Below are positions 20,018-50,046 of a DNA stretch of 50,974 nt, piece by piece. Source of the DNA: Candidatus Firestoneibacteriota bacterium (GTDB lineage Bacteria > Oederibacteriota > D2-FULL-39-29); contig JAZDIO010000219.1 of the NCBI GenBank assembly GCA_043804965.1, positions 1 to 50,974 on the forward strand, read 5' to 3'. The notes beneath the pieces were generated by a model. That model worked only from the letters and a program-made list of their open reading frames with translations, was not told the DNA's origin and searched no databases. The position numbers were made by a program, and so were the translations under genes. The number at the start of each line of letters is the position of its first letter. The first letter of the stretch is position 1.

Positions 20018-21196
20018 CTACTTCTTGGGCCCCGCTTTTTTACCAACAGGTTTACTTCTTTTAAGGATTTTTAGTCGATAGAGGAGATTCTTAAAAATCT
20101 TTTTATAATTTATTTTTTTGTCCTTGGAGGGCTCAAGGTCGGCTAAAATAGAGTTGGTGAATTCTGTCGGAGCGTTTGAGTAAGCTCTTGCAACATCAAA
20201 GCTGATAGCGCCTTTTTTGAATAAGGCTTTTAAAGATTGATTTAAACTCTGCATGCCCTGATCTCTTCCTGTGAATATTGCAGTAGAAATCTGGCGTGCT
20301 TCATCGTTTATAATAAGATTTTTGATGGCAGAAGTTGATATCAATATTTCAACTGCCGGAATTCTCCCTTTTTTATATCCCATGGGCACAAGCTGTTGAG
20401 AAATAACGGAGTTAATCGCTCCTGCGAGTTGTGTTCTCACCTGTGCCTGCTGTATGGGGGGAAAAACATCAATTATCCTGTGTACTGTTTGAGCCGCGTC
20501 GATTGTGTGTAATGTTCCGAAAACAAGATGCCCTGTTTCCGCGGCGGTTATCGCCGTGGAAATTGTCTCCAGATCTCTAAGCTCTCCAATCATTATCACG
20601 TCAGGAGTCTGTCTGACTACCGAAGTAAGTGCGGCAGAAAAAGATTCTGTGTCTACATGGATCTCTCTTTGTTCGACAATACTTTGTTTGTTTTCATGGT
20701 GAAATTCTATAGGGTCTTCTATTGTTATGATATGGCATTTTCTCTTACTGTTAATCAAATCTATCATTGCGGCCAGGGTTGTGCTTTTGCCGCTGCCTGC
20801 GGGACCTGTAATTAATATCAGTCCTCTGTGTGTAAAAGCAAGTTTTTCAATTATAGGAGGAAGGTTAAGTTCGGAAAATTTTGGTAAAAAAATTGGAATA
20901 GGCCGGACTGAAGCCGCAAGCGTGCCTTTTTGAAGGTATGCATTAACTCTGAATCTGCTCAATCCGGTTATAGAATAGGAAAAATCCAATTCTTTTCTTC
21001 TTAGAAGAATAGATTTTTGTTTTTCTGTAAGAAGGGATTCAATAATACTTCTGCACTCTTCAGGTGAGAGTTTTTTGTTGTTCATTTGTACTACTTCACC
21101 GTCAACCCTCAGACTGATTGGAGTATTGGCAGAGAGGATAATGTCAGACGCTCTTTCATTTAACGCAATCTCGCATAGTTCTCTGAAATTCAGCAC
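20018..21196 (-). CDS. pilT: Type IV pilus retraction ATPase PilT family (paralogue 1) with a Lys-rich C-terminal tail
   Basis: Walker A GPAGSGKST, Asp box ITIEDPIEF, Walker B VIMIGELRD, His box GHLVFGTLHT. Start revised to GTG 21196 (AGAGG SD) because a consensus promoter lies inside the ORF-track extension. Confidence 0.85.
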   Translation of the reverse strand: MLNFRELCEIALNERASDIILSANTPISLRVDGEVVQMNNKKLSPEECRSIIESLLTEKQKSILLRRKELDFSYSITGLSRFRVNAYLQKGTLAASVRPIPIFLPKFSELNLPPIIEKLAFTHRGLILITGPAGSGKSTTLAAMIDLINSKRKCHIITIEDPIEFHHENKQSIVEQREIHVDTESFSAALTSVVRQTPDVIMIGELRDLETISTAITAAETGHLVFGTLHTIDAAQTVHRIIDVFPPIQQAQVRTQLAGAINSVISQQLVPMGYKKGRIPAVEILISTSAIKNLIINDEARQISTAIFTGRDQGMQSLNQSLKALFKKGAISFDVARAYSNAPTEFTNSILADLEPSKDKKINYKKIFKNLLYRLKILKRSKPVGKKAGPKK

Positions 21197-21239
21197 GATA
21201 CCTCTTTTATTAAGAATTTTACCAACACTACTTAAAAGC

Positions 21240-21268
21240 ATTATAAAATATTGTGCAATATAAGTCAA
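21240..21268 (-). promoter_or_regulatory. Sigma70-type promoter for pilT-1
   Basis: On the - strand: TTGACT (21268-21263), a 17-nt spacer, then TATAAT (21245-21240). Confidence 0.6.
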
Positions 21269-26974: not shown

Positions 26975-27475
26975 ATGACTGAAGGCGAACTTCAAATAGA
27001 GCAGAGGAAAGCGCCCAGATGGAAATGTTCCATCAATGTTAAGTTTAAAATAGTAAAAGAGGAAAAACTCGGTGTTTTAAAGGATATTTTTATTAGATAC
27101 AAAGAAGGAGAAAGCAGGGATATCAGCGCCGGAGGGACTCAGCTTGTTTCAAAAGAGCCTTTAAAAGTTGGGGATAAGCTTACTATGAGTATTTACCTGC
27201 CTGCAACGGATAATACGGTGAAAGCGCTGGGCGAGGTGGTAAGAGTTATAGAAAAAGAGGAAGATGGGGTAAAAAAGTACTTTATTGGGATACAATATGT
27301 TGATATAATAACGGAAAGCGATGATATACTTGAAGAAATAATGGATCAAAAATTACGGACAGGAACGGCAGGAACCAAGATGTCGAAAGAAGAAGCTCTA
27401 AAGCTTGCCAGATATGAGTATTTTATCCGTCTGATAAATGAAGAATCATTCAATTTTAGGAGAAATAAAGATTGA
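26975..27475 (+). CDS. PilZ domain protein (predicted c-di-GMP receptor)
   Basis: RKAPR (RxxxR) followed by DISAGG (D/NxSxxG). Confidence 0.75.
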   Translation: MTEGELQIEQRKAPRWKCSINVKFKIVKEEKLGVLKDIFIRYKEGESRDISAGGTQLVSKEPLKVGDKLTMSIYLPATDNTVKALGEVVRVIEKEEDGVKKYFIGIQYVDIITESDDILEEIMDQKLRTGTAGTKMSKEEALKLARYEYFIRLINEESFNFRRNKD

Positions 27476-29306: not shown

Positions 29307-30224
29307 ATGCAAAAGTTATTAGCTGCTTTTATGATGCTTGTTTTTCTTGCAGGGTGCGGCGCTTCTTCCAGAATAGTTAAGGAAGACGCGGTATCCGTAA
29401 AAGTAACACAGAAAGTTGAATCCAGATATACGGGGCCTAAAAGAAGGGTTGCGGTTGTAGAATTTGCGAATAAAACTGTTTATGGAAAGCGGCTGGGAAC
29501 CTCTGCTTCGGATATTCTTGTTTCTGAACTTGGCAAATCAGGAAAATTTATTTTGATTGAAAGAGAAAGACTTGGAAAAATTGTTGAAGAGCAGAAACTC
29601 AGTCTTACGGGTATTATAGACAGCAATACAGCGGCAAGTGTCGGGAATATCCTGGGCGCAAGCGCAATTGTTGTCGGGGCTATTTCTAATTTTGGAGTGG
29701 ATACGGAATCAAGCGGTGTGATTATTACTCAAAGTAAAAGGCAGCGGGCATCCTGTACCGTTGAAGTAAGGGTGGTAGATGTTGAGACCGGAAGAGTTAT
29801 TTATACGGATTCCGGTAAAGGCATTGCAGAAAAATCAAGCGGTACTTTTCTGGGTATCGGTTCTTCCTCGGGTTATGATGAAACGCTTGAGGGAGAAGCT
29901 TTACGAGCGGCAATAGTAAAACTTACGGAAAATATAATATCACAGATAAATGCCGCTCCCTGGATCTGCCATATTGCTGAAATCGCTGAGGAAAAAATAT
30001 ACATTGATGCAGGCAGGTTGTCAGGAATGGAAAAAGGCATAAAATTATCGGTATTTAACCCTGGAAAAGAAATTGTGAGTCAGGCTACCGGCCTGGTTCT
30101 GGGCCGTGAAGAGAAGAAAGTTGCTGTTGTAGAAATTGTTGATTTTCTTGGAGAAGACGGCGCAGTAATAAAGGTATTGGAAGGAAAGGTGCAAAAAGGA
30201 GACCTTTGTAAAATTTATGAATAA
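29307..30224 (+). CDS. CsgG-family lipoprotein with an extra C-terminal beta-rich domain
   Basis: Lipobox FLAGCGA. VAVVEFANKT...SELGKSGKFILIERERLGKIVEEQKLSLTGIID...LGASAIVVGAISNFG matches the CsgG periplasmic domain. Confidence 0.7.
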   Translation: MQKLLAAFMMLVFLAGCGASSRIVKEDAVSVKVTQKVESRYTGPKRRVAVVEFANKTVYGKRLGTSASDILVSELGKSGKFILIERERLGKIVEEQKLSLTGIIDSNTAASVGNILGASAIVVGAISNFGVDTESSGVIITQSKRQRASCTVEVRVVDVETGRVIYTDSGKGIAEKSSGTFLGIGSSSGYDETLEGEALRAAIVKLTENIISQINAAPWICHIAEIAEEKIYIDAGRLSGMEKGIKLSVFNPGKEIVSQATGLVLGREEKKVAVVEIVDFLGEDGAVIKVLEGKVQKGDLCKIYE

Positions 30225-42172: not shown

Positions 42173-42201
42173 TTGAAATCAAGCAGGGGATACAGTATAA
42201 T
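42173..42201 (+). promoter_or_regulatory. Sigma70-type promoter positioned for a leaderless AUG at 42209
   Basis: TTGAAA (42173-42178), a 17-nt spacer, then TATAAT (42196-42201). ATG 42209 begins 8 nt after the -10 element and has no SD. Confidence 0.55.
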
Positions 42202-42208
42202 AAAAAAC

Positions 42209-42356
42209 ATGGTACTTAAAAAGGGGAAGGTAATTTCTTTTTATTTCTTCAAAAAGCGGAAATGGAGCTTCTTTCATCTCTGTCAATCTTTCGATTTATC
42301 TCGCAGGTTTTGAAAAAACAGTATTACTTGACACTGAAACGGATTCTACTGCGGTT
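42209..42356 (+). other. Out-of-frame N-terminal extension of the CpaF-like gene (start of a ParA/TadZ-like domain, 1-nt frame change in a T5 run)
   Basis: ATG 42209 encodes MVLKKGKVISF in one frame. From 42234 the frame of the main ORF reads FLFISSKSGNGASFISVNLSIYLAGFEKTVLLDTETDSTAV and continues into Met 42357. Removing one T from 42238-42242 joins the two frames. Confidence 0.55.
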
Positions 42357-44231
42357 ATGCTGGATTTAGAGCTGGACAAAGCTGCCCAAAAGCTTCTTGG
42401 GGCAAAATTAAATTCTGAAGCTTTTATAAGTCTGCTTCCGCTGCATTCTTCAGGACTTTACTCTGCTGCTGTAGATTATGGAAAAAAGGAGCGGTCGGAT
42501 ATTTTTTCAGGGGTTCTTCTCCCAAATTTTGAAAATATAGTGTTTAATGCCGGATCTTTAGAGAAAAATATGGCTGATATTTTTGAAAACTCTTTATTAA
42601 TATTCCTGGTTGTTACTCCGGATCTGATTTCTCTTAAAGCCGCCGAGAGTACATTGTCAAAGCTGGCGGAGTTTCATATAAATCTTGATAAGGTCCAAAT
42701 TATACTGAATAAGACGCATCCGTCACTTGGTTTGGATGAAAAAACAGTGGAAAAGATGCTTCACAGGCGGATAGCCTGTTCCATTCCTTTCGGCCTTGAA
42801 GCAAGTATCAGCATAAATAACGGAAAGCCGCTTGTTTTATCCGCCCCCGATTCTCCGATTACTAGCGCAATAAAGGGGCTGGCAAGAATTGTGGAATCTT
42901 CAGAAGCTGTTTCAATCAAATTTGAAGGGGCGGAGACGGTTCAAAAATACATTATTGACGAAACGGCTCTAAAAGAGAAAATACATCTGAAACTTATCAA
43001 GCTTCTTTCTGGAATGAACATAGACATAGAAAGCTTTGTGGATTTGAAAAAACGTGGAGAATTGGAAATTATAGTTAAAAAAGTTATAGAGGAAATATTT
43101 GCCTCGGATATTAAGGAGCCAAAAGATAAAACGAAAAGGGAAATATTAATGAAAGAGATTCTTCAGGAGGCCCTGGGACTCGGGCCCCTGGAGGACCTGA
43201 TTGGGGATTCCGATATAACCGAAATAATGGTTAACAGCAAAGACCTGGTTTATGTGGAAAAGAAAGGTAAAATAATATTATCCGGAAAGAAATTTATTTC
43301 AGATAAACAGCTTCTTGCCTGCATAGAAAGGATTGTTGCTCCTACAGGAAGAAGAATAGATGAAAGTGTCCCGATGGTGGATGCCCGTCTTCTGGACGGC
43401 TCCAGAGTAAACGCGATAATCCCTCCTCTTGCCCTTAAAGGGCCGTCTCTTACGATAAGAAAATTTTCAAGAGAACGTCTTGGAATAAAAGACCTTATCA
43501 GATTTGGTTCAATTACCGCATCAGCCGCGGAATTTTTAAGGGTATGCGTGCTTTTAAGGAAAAATATAGTAATTAGCGGCGGTACCGGTTCGGGAAAGAC
43601 CACGCTGTTGAATATTGTTTCCTCTTTTATCCCGAAAGACGAAAGAATTATTACCATAGAGGATTCAGCCGAGCTTAATCTGCTGCAGGAGCATGTCGTT
43701 ACGCTGGAATCTCGCCTTCCGAATATCGAAGGACGGGGAGCCGTTACTATAAGAGAACTGGTAAAAAATACGTTAAGAATGCGCCCCGACAGGATTGTTG
43801 TAGGAGAATGCCGCGGCGGCGAAGCCCTGGATATGCTTCAGGCGATGAATACAGGCCATGACGGGTCGTTAACGACTCTTCACAGCAATTCTCCGAGAGA
43901 TGCCCTGTCCCGTCTTGAAACGATGGTTCTTATGTCGGGAATGGAATTGCCATTAAAAGCGATTCGTGAACAGATTGCGTCAGCCGTGGATTTAATTGTA
44001 CATCAGGAGAGGTTTAAAGACGGCACGAGAAGGATTACGCATATTACCGAAATAGCAGACATGGAAGGCGATGTAATAACCACTCAGGATTTGTTCGTTT
44101 TTAAACAGGTTGAAAGTTCGTCAGATGGCAGTATTTCAGGTAAGCTTTTACCTTCCGGAATAATTCCGGGCTTTATTGAGGAGATAGTATTAACGGAAAA
44201 AGAATTTGACAGGAGCATATTCATAAATTAG
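42357..44231 (+). CDS. CpaF/TadA-family secretion ATPase with an N-terminal ParA/TadZ(CpaE)-like domain
   Basis: C-terminal half: Walker A GGTGSGKTT, ITIEDSAEL, VVGECRGGEA, GHDGSLTTLH. N-terminal ~190 aa: VVTPDLISLKAAESTLSKL..., typical of CpaE/MinD-fold proteins. Confidence 0.8.
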   Translation: MLDLELDKAAQKLLGAKLNSEAFISLLPLHSSGLYSAAVDYGKKERSDIFSGVLLPNFENIVFNAGSLEKNMADIFENSLLIFLVVTPDLISLKAAESTLSKLAEFHINLDKVQIILNKTHPSLGLDEKTVEKMLHRRIACSIPFGLEASISINNGKPLVLSAPDSPITSAIKGLARIVESSEAVSIKFEGAETVQKYIIDETALKEKIHLKLIKLLSGMNIDIESFVDLKKRGELEIIVKKVIEEIFASDIKEPKDKTKREILMKEILQEALGLGPLEDLIGDSDITEIMVNSKDLVYVEKKGKIILSGKKFISDKQLLACIERIVAPTGRRIDESVPMVDARLLDGSRVNAIIPPLALKGPSLTIRKFSRERLGIKDLIRFGSITASAAEFLRVCVLLRKNIVISGGTGSGKTTLLNIVSSFIPKDERIITIEDSAELNLLQEHVVTLESRLPNIEGRGAVTIRELVKNTLRMRPDRIVVGECRGGEALDMLQAMNTGHDGSLTTLHSNSPRDALSRLETMVLMSGMELPLKAIREQIASAVDLIVHQERFKDGTRRITHITEIADMEGDVITTQDLFVFKQVESSSDGSISGKLLPSGIIPGFIEEIVLTEKEFDRSIFIN

Positions 44232-44356
44232 CCCCTATAAAAGCAGGGATAATAAGGTCTCAAAAAATTTAAAGTACGCAATGTGAAAAACCTTACCTTG
44301 CAAAATGGCACAGTTTTATTATAAAATACTTATAGAAAATATACTAGGAGGTGGGT

Positions 44357-45718
44357 ATGAAGAGATTGATAGGATTAATTTGTGTAATGATGTTTGTTTT
44401 CTTTAATACCGGCATTGCCGAGGAAATTCAAAAGAAAGCTGTAGTAGGATACCTGAAAGGGACGGTAAAGATTACCAGAAAAGCAGAAAATAATCAGGTA
44501 TATGCAAAACTTGGGATGATTCTTCTTCCAGGGGACAAAATAGAAACCGGAGCAGACAGCAAAGTGGAGCTGAAACTTGAAGACGGTTCAAATTTCAGGA
44601 TAGGTGATAATTCTTCGGTGGTTATAGAGGAGATGAAGAGGGAAAACGACACTGATAAATCTACCATGAAAGTCATCTTTGGGCGCGTCTGGATGAATAT
44701 TAAAAAAGCCCTGGACAGCAACCCAAAGGATTCAAAGATAGTCACCCCGAAAGTTACCGCGGCGGTTAAGGGTACCACTTACAGGGCGGATGTTGATAAA
44801 GACGGTGAAGCTACTGTTAATGTTTATGACGGTGCAGTGGTCGTAGCTAAAGACGGAAAAGAAGAGGAAGTTAATAAATTTGAAAAGGTGGACTCAAAGG
44901 ATCTTCTTAAATCTAAATTTGACGAAGCTGAGGACGCAAAAGACGATTGGGTGAAATGGAATAAAAACCGGGACAAAATAAGGATTATGGTTGTTTTTAC
45001 GGAAAAAGTTAACGGGCAGCTTTCTATGATTCCCTTGTCTGAGGTTATTTTTGCGGAAGAACTCTTAAAGAATTATCTTTATTCGGTTGTTGATCAGGCA
45101 ACTTTAAATCAGATTCGTGAAAATGAAAAACTTAAAGCTGCTTTGACTGATGATAAAGACGGAAAAAAAGCGGCGGCGGCAGGCCTTGAGTTTGGAGCGG
45201 ATATAATCATTACCGGCCAGGTAGATGCTTCTGCCTTAAATACCGGGGCAGCTTACGGCATGATTACCGGAATAGCTGATATGAGAATTAAAGTTGTGAA
45301 GTGTGATACTGCGGAAATAGTTGCGGCCAAGCAGAGGCAGGAGCGCCAGCCTGATGTAATTGTGCAGGGTGCTTTTAACGGTGCTGTAAGAAAGGCTTCT
45401 TCAAAGCTTGTTGCGGAAATCAATGATGAGATAGTCAAATCCTGGAAAAAGGAAGCATTGAAAGGAGCTTCTATTAATATATCCCTATACAATGTGGCTT
45501 TTGAAAAGCTGGAAGCGGTCAGAAATGCCATCTCAGGTATTTCAGGGGTGAAAAATGTCAATCAGGTTTCTTTTGTAGGCGGCCGAGCGTTACTTACGGC
45601 GGCTTTTTCCGGAGACAGCCTTACTTTGGCTGAAAAAGCAGCAGAAATAAACCTGAAGGATATTAAGCTCAATGTTGTTGGTATTTCTATGAATAGGATT
45701 GAAATAGAAATTAACTGA
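44357..45718 (+). CDS. Secreted FecR-domain protein fused to a CsgG/LpoB-fold-like domain and a C-terminal alpha/beta domain
   Basis: Signal peptide. FecR-like GYLKGTVKI...LLPGDKIETGADSKVELKLEDGSNFRIGDNSSV. The middle region (...GADIIITGQVDA...IKVVKCDTAEIVAA...) resembles the CsgG-like protein at 29307. AGGAGG lies 5 nt before ATG 44357. Confidence 0.55.
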   Translation: MKRLIGLICVMMFVFFNTGIAEEIQKKAVVGYLKGTVKITRKAENNQVYAKLGMILLPGDKIETGADSKVELKLEDGSNFRIGDNSSVVIEEMKRENDTDKSTMKVIFGRVWMNIKKALDSNPKDSKIVTPKVTAAVKGTTYRADVDKDGEATVNVYDGAVVVAKDGKEEEVNKFEKVDSKDLLKSKFDEAEDAKDDWVKWNKNRDKIRIMVVFTEKVNGQLSMIPLSEVIFAEELLKNYLYSVVDQATLNQIRENEKLKAALTDDKDGKKAAAAGLEFGADIIITGQVDASALNTGAAYGMITGIADMRIKVVKCDTAEIVAAKQRQERQPDVIVQGAFNGAVRKASSKLVAEINDEIVKSWKKEALKGASINISLYNVAFEKLEAVRNAISGISGVKNVNQVSFVGGRALLTAAFSGDSLTLAEKAAEINLKDIKLNVVGISMNRIEIEIN

Positions 45719-46958: not shown

Positions 46959-48035
46959 ATGAAGAGTTGGCTGATTGCTCTTATCGTCGTAACGCTTTTT
47001 CTTTCCTTTGTGGGTTTCTCTAACAGCTTTGTTATGAATTCTGAAATAGGTAAGATACAGGATACTCTTATAGTCATTGACCGGTTGAATAAAGATGTCC
47101 TTACCGAGATAGCTCTGGCAAGAATGGAGTTTTCTCACTATATGACCAATTTTGAAAAGAGCGAGGATTCCGGTGTAAAAAGGCTCAAAGACGCGGGAAA
47201 TAAGGCTTCGAAAGTTCTTGAAATGACGCAGAGTGAGGCGGTAAAAGAGAAAGCAAAAAAGATTCTTGAGCTGATAAATAAGAATATTGAAATTTCTGAA
47301 GAATTTAAAAAAGAAGGCAAGGATGAGATAAAATATATTAAGATGATAAGCATGAAAATTACTCTGGAAAAAGAAACATTTTCTGAAATGTCGGGCCTGA
47401 CTGTGATAATACAAAAAGACATAGATGATAGAGTTAATAATATTAAGCTTGTTTCTTCTAAATTTGTCCTGCTGTCTTTGTTCCTTTTTATTTTTGTAAC
47501 CGGAGGTATTGTTATTACAACTATTGTTTACAGCTTTGTTTCCAGGGAGCAGAATAAGGAGTTAAATTATTATATCAGCCATAATCTGACGGACAGAGAT
47601 ACCGGGTTTTTTAATAAAATGTATTTTCTTGCCCGCTTGAAAGAGCTTCTTAATAAAGCTTCCCGTTTTAAAGAAGCGGTTGCTGTAGTGATGGTAAATA
47701 TTGAACCGGAAGCGGCAAAATCAAATCTCAAAATTGCCTCACTTTGCGCAGCCGGTGAAATAATAAAGAAAGGGACAAGAATTTATGACCTTGTAGCAAG
47801 GTATGATAATACAGTCGCGGTTTTATTGTATAAGGTCGGACAGAAAGAAGTTACAGGAGTGTTGAACCGCATAAAAAAACAGCTGGAGAAAAATGATTTG
47901 CTGGTGGAACATAAGAAGCGGAAACTATTTTTCAGGCAGAAAAATATTCCGGAAAAAGTAAAAATCGCAGTTAGTTTTGACGTTATGAACTACCCTTATG
48001 ACAAAGAGAAAATAGAACTTCTTTTAAAAGGCTGA
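46959..48035 (+). CDS. Membrane sensor with a degenerate (GGDEF-motif-less) diguanylate-cyclase-like domain
   Basis: TM helix, helical periplasmic domain, TM helix. The GGDEF-fold pattern DRDTGFFNKMYFLARL ... VAVVMVNIE ... ARYDNTVAVLL has YDNTV in place of GGDEF. Confidence 0.6.
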   Translation: MKSWLIALIVVTLFLSFVGFSNSFVMNSEIGKIQDTLIVIDRLNKDVLTEIALARMEFSHYMTNFEKSEDSGVKRLKDAGNKASKVLEMTQSEAVKEKAKKILELINKNIEISEEFKKEGKDEIKYIKMISMKITLEKETFSEMSGLTVIIQKDIDDRVNNIKLVSSKFVLLSLFLFIFVTGGIVITTIVYSFVSREQNKELNYYISHNLTDRDTGFFNKMYFLARLKELLNKASRFKEAVAVVMVNIEPEAAKSNLKIASLCAAGEIIKKGTRIYDLVARYDNTVAVLLYKVGQKEVTGVLNRIKKQLEKNDLLVEHKKRKLFFRQKNIPEKVKIAVSFDVMNYPYDKEKIELLLKG

Positions 48036-48948: not shown

Positions 48949-50046
48949 ATGTTGATAAATGATTTGCTTAATAAGATGGTTGAAAGTAAGGCCTCTGACC
49001 TTCATTTGAAAGTCGGCAGGCCTCCGCTGCTTAGAATTGACGGTAAAATGACACGGGTTGAGCTTCCAGTGCTTACTGAAACAGATATTGAAGAAATGCT
49101 TTTTGCCATGATGAGTCAACGCCAGAGAGTAAAATTTGGAGAAGCAAACAAGATAGACCTGTCATATTCTCCTACAGGTTTGGCCAGGTTTAGAATAAAT
49201 GCTTTTAGGCAAAGGAGTACCATAGAGCTTATCATCAGAATGATCCCTAAAGACATACCGTCTATTGAGGCTCTTATTTTACCGCCGGTGCTTAAGAAAA
49301 TCGCTCTCGAATCCAGGGGGCTTGTCCTTATGACGGGGGCCACCGGCAGCGGAAAATCCACTACCCTGGCTTCATTAGTAAAATATATAAATGATAATCA
49401 GCCCTATCATATTATCACCATAGAGGATCCCATAGAATTTATTCACACGGATAATAAAAGCAGTGTCACCCAGCGTGAGCTGGGAATTGATACCGATTCT
49501 TATGAGGTGGCATTAAAGTATGTTTTAAGGCAGGATCCGGATGTTGTCTTCATAGGAGAAATGAGAGATATTGATACCGTTGGCGCTGCTATTTCAGCGG
49601 GTGAAACGGGACACCTGGTACTTTCGACGCTACATACAATAGATGCGAGTCAGACAATAGACAGGTTGATAGACTTTTATCCGGCTTCCCAGCAAAATCA
49701 GATCCGTAATCAACTGGCGAACATAATAACGGCTATTATTTCCATGCGGCTTATTGAAAAGGCGGACGGAAAAGGGCGTGTTCCTGCCGTGGAGGTGATG
49801 CTGGGTACACCTACAATAAAATCGCTCATCAGAGATAATAAACTTTCTTTAATTAAGTCAATGATACAACAGGGCTTCGCTCAATACGGTATGCAGACTT
49901 TTGATCAGTCGCTTGCGGAGCTTTACAAAAAAGGGCTGATTACTCTTGATAGGGCTTTGGCTGAAGCTACGAGTAAAAATGATTTAAAGCTCTCGTTAAG
50001 CGGAATTATTTCCAGCGTTGATTCTGCCAGGGAACAAATGAAGTAA
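48949..50046 (+). CDS. pilT: Type IV pilus retraction ATPase PilT family (paralogue 2)
   Basis: ASDLHLKVGRPPLLRIDG, Walker A GATGSGKST, ITIEDPIEF, VVFIGEMRD, GHLVLSTLHT. GGAGG SD. Confidence 0.9.
   Translation: MLINDLLNKMVESKASDLHLKVGRPPLLRIDGKMTRVELPVLTETDIEEMLFAMMSQRQRVKFGEANKIDLSYSPTGLARFRINAFRQRSTIELIIRMIPKDIPSIEALILPPVLKKIALESRGLVLMTGATGSGKSTTLASLVKYINDNQPYHIITIEDPIEFIHTDNKSSVTQRELGIDTDSYEVALKYVLRQDPDVVFIGEMRDIDTVGAAISAGETGHLVLSTLHTIDASQTIDRLIDFYPASQQNQIRNQLANIITAIISMRLIEKADGKGRVPAVEVMLGTPTIKSLIRDNKLSLIKSMIQQGFAQYGMQTFDQSLAELYKKGLITLDRALAEATSKNDLKLSLSGIISSVDSAREQMK

Follow-up and report, generated by a model that had tools for sequence, protein, structure and literature searches.

Judged from the sequence, a single gene, tadZA, lies at 42209-44231 of the window (the whole stretch of DNA analysed, 50,974 nt or 51 kb), and it is predicted to encode a 673-aa protein in which a TadZ/CpaE-type ParA/MinD domain is joined to a complete TadA/CpaF ATPase. 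As the sequence stands, the reading frame of this gene is broken close to its 5' end. The promoter elements, start codons and frames are the following.

42173..42178, + strand: -35 hexamer TTGAAA; TTGAAA, TTGCTT or TTGCAT at the equivalent position in all eight orthologues
42196..42201, + strand: -10 hexamer TATAAT, 17 nt past the -35 hexamer; TATAAT or TAAAAT in all eight orthologues
42209..42211, + strand: true tadZA start codon, from the orthologue starts; no Shine-Dalgarno (SD) sequence; probable 5' end of a leaderless mRNA
42209..42313, + strand: frame as the sequence stands, 34 codons followed by TGA, from translation of ATG 42209
42238..42242, + strand: T5 run with one extra T, the frame break; the orthologues have no T-run
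42357..42359, + strand: ATG used by the mechanical ORF list, an internal codon (Met50) in the corrected frame

Translation from the ATG at 42209-42211 (MVLKKGKVISFYFF...) ends at TGA 42311-42313 and gives a product of 34 aa. The mechanical ORF list reported a 624-aa ORF from ATG 42357 to TAG 44229-44231, the frame of which is open upstream to 42234; this open stretch reads FLFISSKSGNGASFISVNLSIYLAGFEKTVLLDTETDSTAV and is directly preceded by TAA 42231-42233. Removal of one T from the T5 run results in an unbroken 673-aa protein starting with MVLKKGKVISFISSKSGNGAS.... Indeed, the corrected protein and a 673-aa orthologue from Candidatus Firestonebacteria (P0003) are equal in length and 80% identical, without a single gap. 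These frames, the position of the break in the T-run and the seamless restoration of the frame by a one-T deletion had been described in the first-pass annotation of this DNA, and recomputation confirmed every one of these sequence-level statements. The comparison with orthologues that it had proposed revealed a continuous ORF in all eight examined, and the N-terminus was continuous in all orthologues P0003-P0011.

The orthologues start with MVLNKGK, MVLKKGK or MVHNKGK at the codon equivalent to 42209, in agreement with the earlier assignment of this ATG, which is the true start of tadZA. None of those examined starts at the equivalent of Met50. A gene beginning at Met 42357, with an upstream open frame that is non-coding by chance, would fit the fact that the long frame contains no ATG, GTG or TTG ahead of 42357, but there is practically no chance that this is correct, and it was rejected on the basis of the orthologue starts and the dN/dS of the upstream codons. 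In the corrected frame, these 49 codons are 75% identical to those of the orthologue and display a dN/dS of 0.18 (codons 1-49), matching the remainder of the TadZ domain. Their product comprises the first strand and first helix of the ParA fold (beta-1 and helix 1) together with the Walker-A-like loop, a region modelled at a pLDDT of about 90, and no SD precedes 42357. A 673-aa tadZA, flagged as frameshifted or corrected, would thus be a better annotation of the locus than a 624-aa CpaF.

Domains and relatives of the TadZA protein

In the corrected frame, the two domains and their motifs are distributed as follows.

42243..42908, + strand: TadZ-type ParA/MinD-fold domain, residues 12-233 (Pfam CbiA, profile, fold match and dN/dS); residues 1-11 of the domain are encoded at 42209-42241
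42252..42272, + strand: Walker-A-like motif KSGNGAS, K15-S21 (sequence and 31-protein alignment)
42909..42953, + strand: linker of residues 234-248, disordered according to the AlphaFold2 model (pLDDT < 50)
42954..44231, + strand: CpaF/TadA-type ATPase, residues 249-673, and TAG stop (Pfam, structure and motifs)
within 43575-43604, + strand: Walker A, GGTGSGKTT
43641-43676, + strand: Asp box, ERIITIEDSAEL
43782-43826, + strand: Walker B, RPDRIVVGECRGGEA
43854-43889, + strand: His box, GHDGSLTTLHSN

The last four motifs were found by sequence, and their residues are unchanged across the 31 homologues of alignment A1.

The N-terminal domain was matched by Pfam CbiA (ParA/MinD type) over residues 9-207 (E 2.7e-7; 31 bits, cut-off 25.4). 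Since matches to the CpaF part dominated the Foldseek list of the whole model, leaving PDB 3FKQ unranked structurally, a profile search was used for this domain. By far the best solved relative was PDB 3EA0 (E 6.7e-38), a 'ParA family ATPase' of Chlorobium tepidum, which presumably originates from a tad locus and for which a literature search gave no match. Similarly to the predicted TadZ-type domain, it has the ParA/MinD fold and a motif (KGGDGGS) without the canonical lysine. 3FKQ, the TadZ of Eubacterium rectale, matched the profile weakly and in part (E 6e-8). MinD 1HYQ matched with an E of 3.4e-28, and its fold matched that of the predicted model with a TMt (TM-score normalised by target length) of 0.82. 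MinD and FlhG (FleN) share the fold and gave profile matches of 1e-21 to 1e-28; unlike TadZA, they possess KGGxGK[ST] with the catalytic lysine as well as a C-terminal membrane-targeting helix, and are without a fused secretion ATPase. The dN/dS of the TadZ domain was 0.18. The receiver-like N-terminal domain (ARD) of TadZ/CpaE is not present in the tadZA product, since the ParA fold begins at residue 7 (strand 7-13 in the AlphaFold2 model), leaving no room for it. The Bdellovibrio TadZA is likewise devoid of an ARD (bioRxiv 10.64898/2026.07.08.737194).

The consensus motif of TadZ is K/RGGXGXS/T, in which the canonical GK[ST] lysine is absent (bioRxiv 10.64898/2026.07.08.737194). KSGNGAS agrees with this consensus at K15, G17, G19 and S21, the Ser at the second Gly being the sole mismatch. 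Among the 31 aligned fusion proteins, K15 is nearly invariant and both G17 and G19 are invariant, and the relatives within the clade have KGGSGAT, KGGCGST or KGGVGST at this position. The signature lysine had at first been considered lost. However, K15, the first K of the deviant Walker A, is kept, whereas the lysine that is missing is the canonical one of GK[ST]. The canonical P-loop lysine is normally absent in TadZ; besides the consensus, this is the case for 3EA0 and for the CpaE of Liberibacter, with the Walker-A-like motif KGGVGSS. From its KSGNGAS motif, the N-terminal domain would be expected to bind ATP at best, but not to hydrolyse it. In contrast, the Bdellovibrionota proteins retain the canonical lysine (KGGVGKS).

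The C-terminal part was matched by Pfam T2SSE (PF00437) over residues 322-599 (E 3.7e-60). The best Foldseek matches were the CpaF structures of Caulobacter crescentus (9E24, 8RJF and 8RKD; E of about 1e-41, 48% identity over about 423 columns), the C-terminal stretch of about 425 residues matching the whole CpaF chain, and other families were matched more weakly (FlaI, 1e-24; VirB11, 1e-21). The ATPase is closer to CpaF than to PilB, PilT, GspE or VirB11. The top NCBIfam match was TIGR03819 (TadA family), with 317.5 bits, under the equivalog cut-off of 373. The dN/dS of the ATPase domain was 0.06. Whereas the Caulobacter CpaF is a separate protein, encoded beside cpaE in the pilus operon, the CpaF of the window carries the TadZ-like domain in the same chain. 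The genetic linkage to tadA that is typical of TadZ takes the form of a covalent fusion to the TadA/CpaF module.

With both domains identified by Pfam, profile and fold searches, the proposed fusion of CpaF to a TadZ (CpaE)-like domain could be upheld. The accompanying view that such a fusion is unusual in itself could not, as a TadZ-TadA fusion is known in Bdellovibrio, where it is named TadZA (bioRxiv 10.64898/2026.07.08.737194), and of the best 120 database matches, about 89 unite both domains in a single protein, these proteins spanning several phyla. The gene is an ordinary member of this known TadZ-TadA fusion family. For instance, the homologue of Bdellovibrio sp. HCB288, a single ORF, aligns to residues 21-673 with 41% identity. 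One protein, P0002, outscored the true orthologue in the search; being a triple CpaF repeat of 1156 aa, it was rejected as the nearest relative because of this architecture. Three further loci (L018, L021 and L035) were rejected as fusions and left uncounted, their 'full-length' matches consisting of neighbouring, separate tadZ and tadA genes. A protein scan of genome_contigs was swamped by generic CpaF motifs, and no Firestonebacteria were among the matches returned. With the present findings, the TadZ-TadA fusions, the study of which has lately begun in Bdellovibrio, extend to a candidate-phylum clade; the current understanding of Tad systems is left unaltered.

Promoter placement and genomic setting

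The tadZA gene is preceded by its own predicted near-consensus sigma-70 promoter. The exact pattern TTGAAA-N17-TATAAT occurs once in the 51-kb window, against 0.06 matches expected from shuffles, and at 11 of 12 matching promoter positions the tadZA promoter stands alone within the 3.8 kb scanned. No SD was found before ATG 42209, while most other window genes carry a clear GGAG, AGGA or GAGG. Both the TTGAAA-17-TATAAT promoter and the absence of an SD had been reported in the first-pass annotation; the distance of 8 nt given there was off by one or counted differently, as 7 nt (AAAAAAC) separate TATAAT from the ATG. Because the -10 hexamer ends 7 nt upstream of the ATG, the tadZA mRNA is most likely leaderless. 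Indeed, in all eight orthologues as well as in the window, the -10 element is situated 5-8 nt upstream of the start codon, without an SD, and this conserved geometry supports a leaderless mRNA, in line with the leaderless-type promoter proposed earlier. The conserved promoter placement is modestly new, and in a genome otherwise reliant on SD sequences, tadZA would be a clean comparative example of leaderless initiation that is conserved. Judged by the same promoter placement, the database entries for two orthologues (709 and 685 aa) are overlong.

Also modestly new is the finding that, in this clade, tadZA stands apart from the tad genes and adjoins FecR, M23 and PilT genes. Neither tadB, tadC, rcpA nor flp was found in the 51-kb window, and T2SSF, Secretin and Flp genes were absent among the 30 window genes scanned. 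The clade orthologues are detached from tad genes too, and the conserved neighbours encode a FecR-domain protein, a LysM-M23 peptidase, a degenerate GGDEF protein and PilT. Whereas the Bdellovibrio tadZA is part of tad locus 1, the tadZA of the window is thus a detached gene with its own leaderless-type promoter. More distant fusion homologues are flanked by the rcpA secretin gene on one side and tadB/tadC on the other, in the company of Flp and RcpC genes, and TadZ-TadA fusions of several phyla lie within Tad loci. Since the window lacks the tad genes mentioned, a role in pili is proposed by analogy with the Bdellovibrio TadZA and with the relatives inside Tad loci, and not from this locus itself. 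By that analogy, an intact TadZA may couple positioning by its TadZ part to the ATPase motor for the extension and retraction of a Tad/Flp pilus.

Origin of the extra T

The presence of one extra T (T4 to T5) would shift the frame past codon 11, and translation from ATG 42209 would then stop after 34 codons. At this site, the orthologues have TCT CTT ATT, TCT ATA ATT, TCA ATA ATC or TCA ATT ATT, and neither a T-run nor a frame break occurs in any of the eight. A 7-nt direct repeat, ATTTCTT, brackets the T5 run (42233-42239 and 42243-42249). The break in tadZA is the sole frame break in 42 genes. A tblastn search with the proteins of orthologous loci showed each of the 13 further syntenic genes in the region of 30.2-50.6 kb to be single-frame and full length, and the rest of the contig consists of closely spaced ORFs, without split genes. 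The window contains 567 homopolymers of at least 5 nt and 208 of at least 6 nt, and the clean genes in spite of these runs indicate that the assembly is not prone to homopolymer errors.

A full-length protein might be produced from the T5 sequence by programmed +1 ribosomal frameshifting or by transcriptional slippage on U5. Indeed, tRNA-Phe could re-pair perfectly, from UUU to UUU, and the resulting protein would not differ from that obtained by deleting one T. However, the A-site codon UAU is neither a stop nor rare, the shifted frame continues for 23 further codons, and the purine-rich GGGGAAGG ends 8 nt upstream of the UUU slip codon, compared with about 3 nt in prfB, and simply encodes the conserved KGK; as for transcriptional slippage, five T's are far too short. 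Programmed frameshifting, one of the possibilities raised in the first-pass annotation, was rejected on the strength of the eight orthologues, which are all continuous and lack both a T-run and any slippery site here, the L or I at this position being encoded by CTT, ATA or ATT, and recoding of either kind is hardly conceivable. The phase-variable indel suggested alongside it is very unlikely too. Phase variation classically affects pilus and surface genes, the indel is located at the extreme 5' end of tadZA and the direct repeat flanks the run on both sides, which would suit on-off switching of the pilus motor through slipped-strand mispairing, but the tract comprises just 4-5 nt and is conserved in no orthologue. 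Known homopolymer phase switches usually require at least 7 nt. It is equally far-fetched to combine a real T5 with the free-standing position of tadZA, namely as a Tad motor that departed from the Tad operon and works in another setting with its conserved neighbours, for example as a new envelope- or pilus-related machine, its expression being switched either by slippage on the short T-run or, from a leaderless mRNA, by +1 recoding at a low level. Even taken together, all explanations besides a real mutation and a sequencing or assembly error are improbable.

A real and recent mutation is given an about even chance as the origin of the extra T, a slight lean that follows from a base-rate argument. 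The insertion would then be genuine and very recent, in a short homopolymer, and would inactivate tadZA in this genome or population, from which we infer a loss of tadZA function. A sequencing or assembly (consensus) error, in an organism with an intact, functional tadZA containing T4, is a serious but lesser possibility. A single-base homopolymer break is the commonest type of consensus error, and the tadZA family is conserved throughout the relatives. Apart from the extra T, the other 1,989 nt of the gene are undamaged, with all catalytic motifs intact and invariant and with strong purifying selection; a functional gene hit by an assembly error would be expected to look just the same. Conversely, an error-prone assembly would hardly be expected to give one break in 42 genes in the presence of 208 homopolymers of at least 6 nt, where platform errors should cluster, and runs as short as T4 or T5 are seldom miscalled in an Illumina or HiFi consensus. 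Run length was nevertheless discarded as a discriminator between error and mutation, as a run of 4-5 nt is not improbable enough under a plausible length-dependent error model, and the weight is carried only by the overall cleanness of the contig. An exact scan for the T4/T5 pattern in metagenome_contigs and genome_contigs gave no match, and the window itself is the one member of the protein cluster to which the 624-aa ORF belongs. As the collections searched contained no independent sequence of the same species, the choice between T4 and T5 rests on base rates. If the frameshift is real, the population has recently lost its TadZA ATPase.

Start and frame break of tadZA

The frame opened by ATG 42209 of tadZA, a gene for a TadZ(CpaE)-like domain fused to a TadA/CpaF ATPase, encodes MVLKKGKVISFYFFKKRKW... 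and ends at a TGA (42311-42313). The frame of the mechanically called 624-aa ORF (42357-44231) is open upstream to 42234, directly after a TAA (42231-42233), and encodes FLFISSKSGNGASFISVNLSIYLAGFEKTVLLDTETDSTAV there. The break lies within a T5 run (42238-42242), after the Ser10 codon and before that of Ile12, and removal of one T yields an uninterrupted gene of 673 codons. Frames, T5 run, promoter and restoration of the gene by a single-T removal were all found upon re-reading as described in the first-pass annotation. The best full-length database match to the corrected protein, P0003 of Candidatus Firestonebacteria, is also 673 aa long and 80% identical in a gapless, codon-for-codon alignment; a continuous N-terminus is present in all of the database proteins P0003 to P0011 (e.g., MVLNKGKIISLISSKSGNGSS). 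Compared with the orthologue, codons 1-49 in the corrected frame have the same dN/dS (0.18) as the rest of the N-terminal ParA/MinD domain, the value being 0.06 for the ATPase part. The orthologous N-termini, the P0003 alignment and the dN/dS of codons 1-49 show that 42209 is the true start and that Met 42357 is internal.

Programmed +1 frameshifting, one of the explanations offered originally, is excluded by eight orthologous DNAs that carry neither a T-run nor a frame change at this site (TCT CTT ATT, TCT ATA ATT, TCA ATA ATC, TCA ATT ATT and similar), by the putative A-site codon (UAU), and by the purine-rich GGGGAAGG, which merely codes for the conserved K-G-K and has its end 8 nt 5' of the UUU codon. 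The shifted frame continues for 23 codons. Transcriptional slippage and a typical phase-variation switch are unlikely as well, the 5-nt tract being too short for either and unconserved. This leaves an insertion of one T that is not programmed and is either genuine or an artefact. A second copy of the same species was not found in the collections searched (protein cluster, metagenome_contigs and genome_contigs). Thirteen other syntenic genes are full length and each in a single frame (tblastn with proteins of the orthologous loci), and the remaining ORFs of the contig are closely packed, without split genes. This otherwise clean contig, despite 567 homopolymers of at least 5 nt and 208 of at least 6 nt in the window, argues against an error-prone platform. 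Given the clean contig and ordinary pseudogene frequencies, we lean slightly towards inferring a real, recent mutation, for which the chances are about even, over an artefact, which is somewhat less likely. A 7-nt direct repeat (ATTTCTT ... ATTTCTT; 42233-42249) flanks the T-run and could favour slippage or misalignment there.

Domain organization and fusions elsewhere

The corrected protein contains a CbiA domain of the ParA/MinD type (residues 9-207) and a T2SSE domain (residues 322-599) according to Pfam, and its AlphaFold2 model (mean pLDDT 78) has a disordered linker (residues 234-248). An atypical receiver domain is absent from it, since the ParA fold starts at residue 7. The best structural matches of the C-terminal ~425 residues are Caulobacter CpaF/TadA (9E24, 8RJF and 8RKD; 48% identity), and Walker A, Asp box, Walker B and His box of the ATPase part are all intact. 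The N-domain profile matched PDB 3EA0, a 245-aa 'ParA family ATPase' with the motif KGGDGGS, at E 6.7e-38, some ten orders of magnitude below the value for MinD. The signature lysine, reported as lost from KSGNGAS, had been mislabelled. Both the TadZ Walker-A-like consensus K/RGGXGXS/T (2026 preprint, bioRxiv 10.64898/2026.07.08.737194) and the Liberibacter CpaE motif KGGVGSS, of which the first K is named the signature lysine, place this residue at the first K, which is retained. Across 31 homologues, K15 is nearly invariant and G17 and G19 are invariant; the missing residue is the canonical P-loop lysine, as in TadZ proteins generally, and the sole oddity is a Ser where the second Gly is expected.

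The identity of the protein as a TadZ-CpaF fusion was confirmed, but such a fusion is not unusual. About 89 of the 120 best database matches are single proteins of ~650-740 aa with both domain types, originating from Omnitrophota, Elusimicrobiota, Acidobacteriota, candidate division FCPU426 and Firestonebacteria. The TadZA hybrid of Bdellovibrio bacteriovorus joins a TadZ region that lacks the receiver domain to a TadA module through a flexible linker, and the TadZ region binds RomR, a polarity hub (bioRxiv 10.64898/2026.07.08.737194); the window protein has this organization too. Fusions were confirmed as single ORFs in Bdellovibrionota and Omnitrophota genomes. In an Acidobacteriota-like genome (order Flp ... 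RcpC, secretin, fusion, TadB, TadC) and an Omnitrophota genome (RcpC and secretin, then fusion), the fusions sit among other Tad genes and are true Tad motors. Three tblastn places in Firmicutes and Chloroflexota (L018, L021 and L035 of genome_contigs; residues 4-659), joined by the tool, represent adjacent separate tadZ and tadA genes and are not counted as fusions.

CpaF-type proteins normally assemble as hexamers. P0002 (ENA, on a 58-kb contig outside the window) is one polypeptide of 1156 aa in which three CpaF-like ATPase modules, all possessing a Walker A and a His box, follow one another in tandem, an unusual covalent trimer.

Free-standing locus and leaderless-type promoter

In the window and in relatives at 60-80% identity (loci L001, L009, L093 and L094, and the P0008 contig), tadZA lies apart from any tad gene; no T2SSF, secretin or Flp genes occurred among the 30 window genes scanned. 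The conserved order is RodZ, YajQ, DnaJ, (Wzy_C, sensor kinases), tadZA, FecR-domain protein, (AP endonuclease 2), LysM-M23 peptidase, (degenerate GGDEF), a ~260-aa protein on the opposite strand, PilT and AMMECR1.

Genes of the window
20018-21268, minus strand: second PilT-type gene, 416-aa paralogue (~45% identity)
26975-27475, plus strand: PilZ-domain protein
29307-30224, plus strand: CsgG/LpoB-like lipoprotein
44351-45718, plus strand: FecR-domain protein just 3' of tadZA, synteny conserved
46959-48035, plus strand: 358-aa protein matching GGDEF only weakly and in part (profile positions 59-122, E 3.8e-8)
48949-50046, plus strand: PilT-type retraction ATPase gene (TIGR01420, 469.7 bits, above cut-off)

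In all clade relatives, the last of these is kept four to five genes 3' of tadZA. The 358-aa protein, kept in L001 and L093, probably represents a diguanylate cyclase domain that has degenerated. In NCBIfam, the FecR-domain protein is similar to Lsa33 (E 1.8e-22) and LipL45 (E 1e-17), two surface proteins of Leptospira, with both matches falling well short of the cut-offs. In L001 and L093, a CsgG-like gene comes after the PilT-AMMECR1 pair.

Promoter elements of tadZA
42173-42178: -35 element TTGAAA, 17 nt before the -10 element
42196-42201: -10 element TATAAT, followed after 7 nt by ATG

The exact TTGAAA-N17-TATAAT occurs once in the 51-kb window (0.06 expected) and is the only 11/12 promoter match nearby. 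All eight clade sequences and the window have a -35 element (TTGAAA, TTGCTT or TTGCAT), a spacing of 17-18 nt, TATAAT or TAAAAT, and a gap of only 5-8 nt to ATG or GTG, without a Shine-Dalgarno (SD) sequence before the start. Strong SDs precede most other window genes, and the genes upstream of the promoter differ wholly among these clade loci. Together, these features give good comparative support for a leaderless tadZA mRNA, so that the leaderless-type promoter first proposed is upheld. This promoter is missing from L011 and L012, relatives in which the gene is part of an operon.

P0004 (709 aa) and P0005 (685 aa) are annotated with N-termini that are too long, their called starts lying 5' of the conserved promoter; gene callers extended them upstream because of the leaderless-type promoter without SD. 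The real starts are the MVL/MVH codons at L005:6870 and L007:616.

Over-extended N-terminal stretches
L005:6762-6869: P0004
L007:580-615: P0005

Two orthologues start with GTG instead of ATG, 5 nt after TATAAT (L093:8639 and L094:2873), and their transcripts would be leaderless mRNAs starting with GUG.
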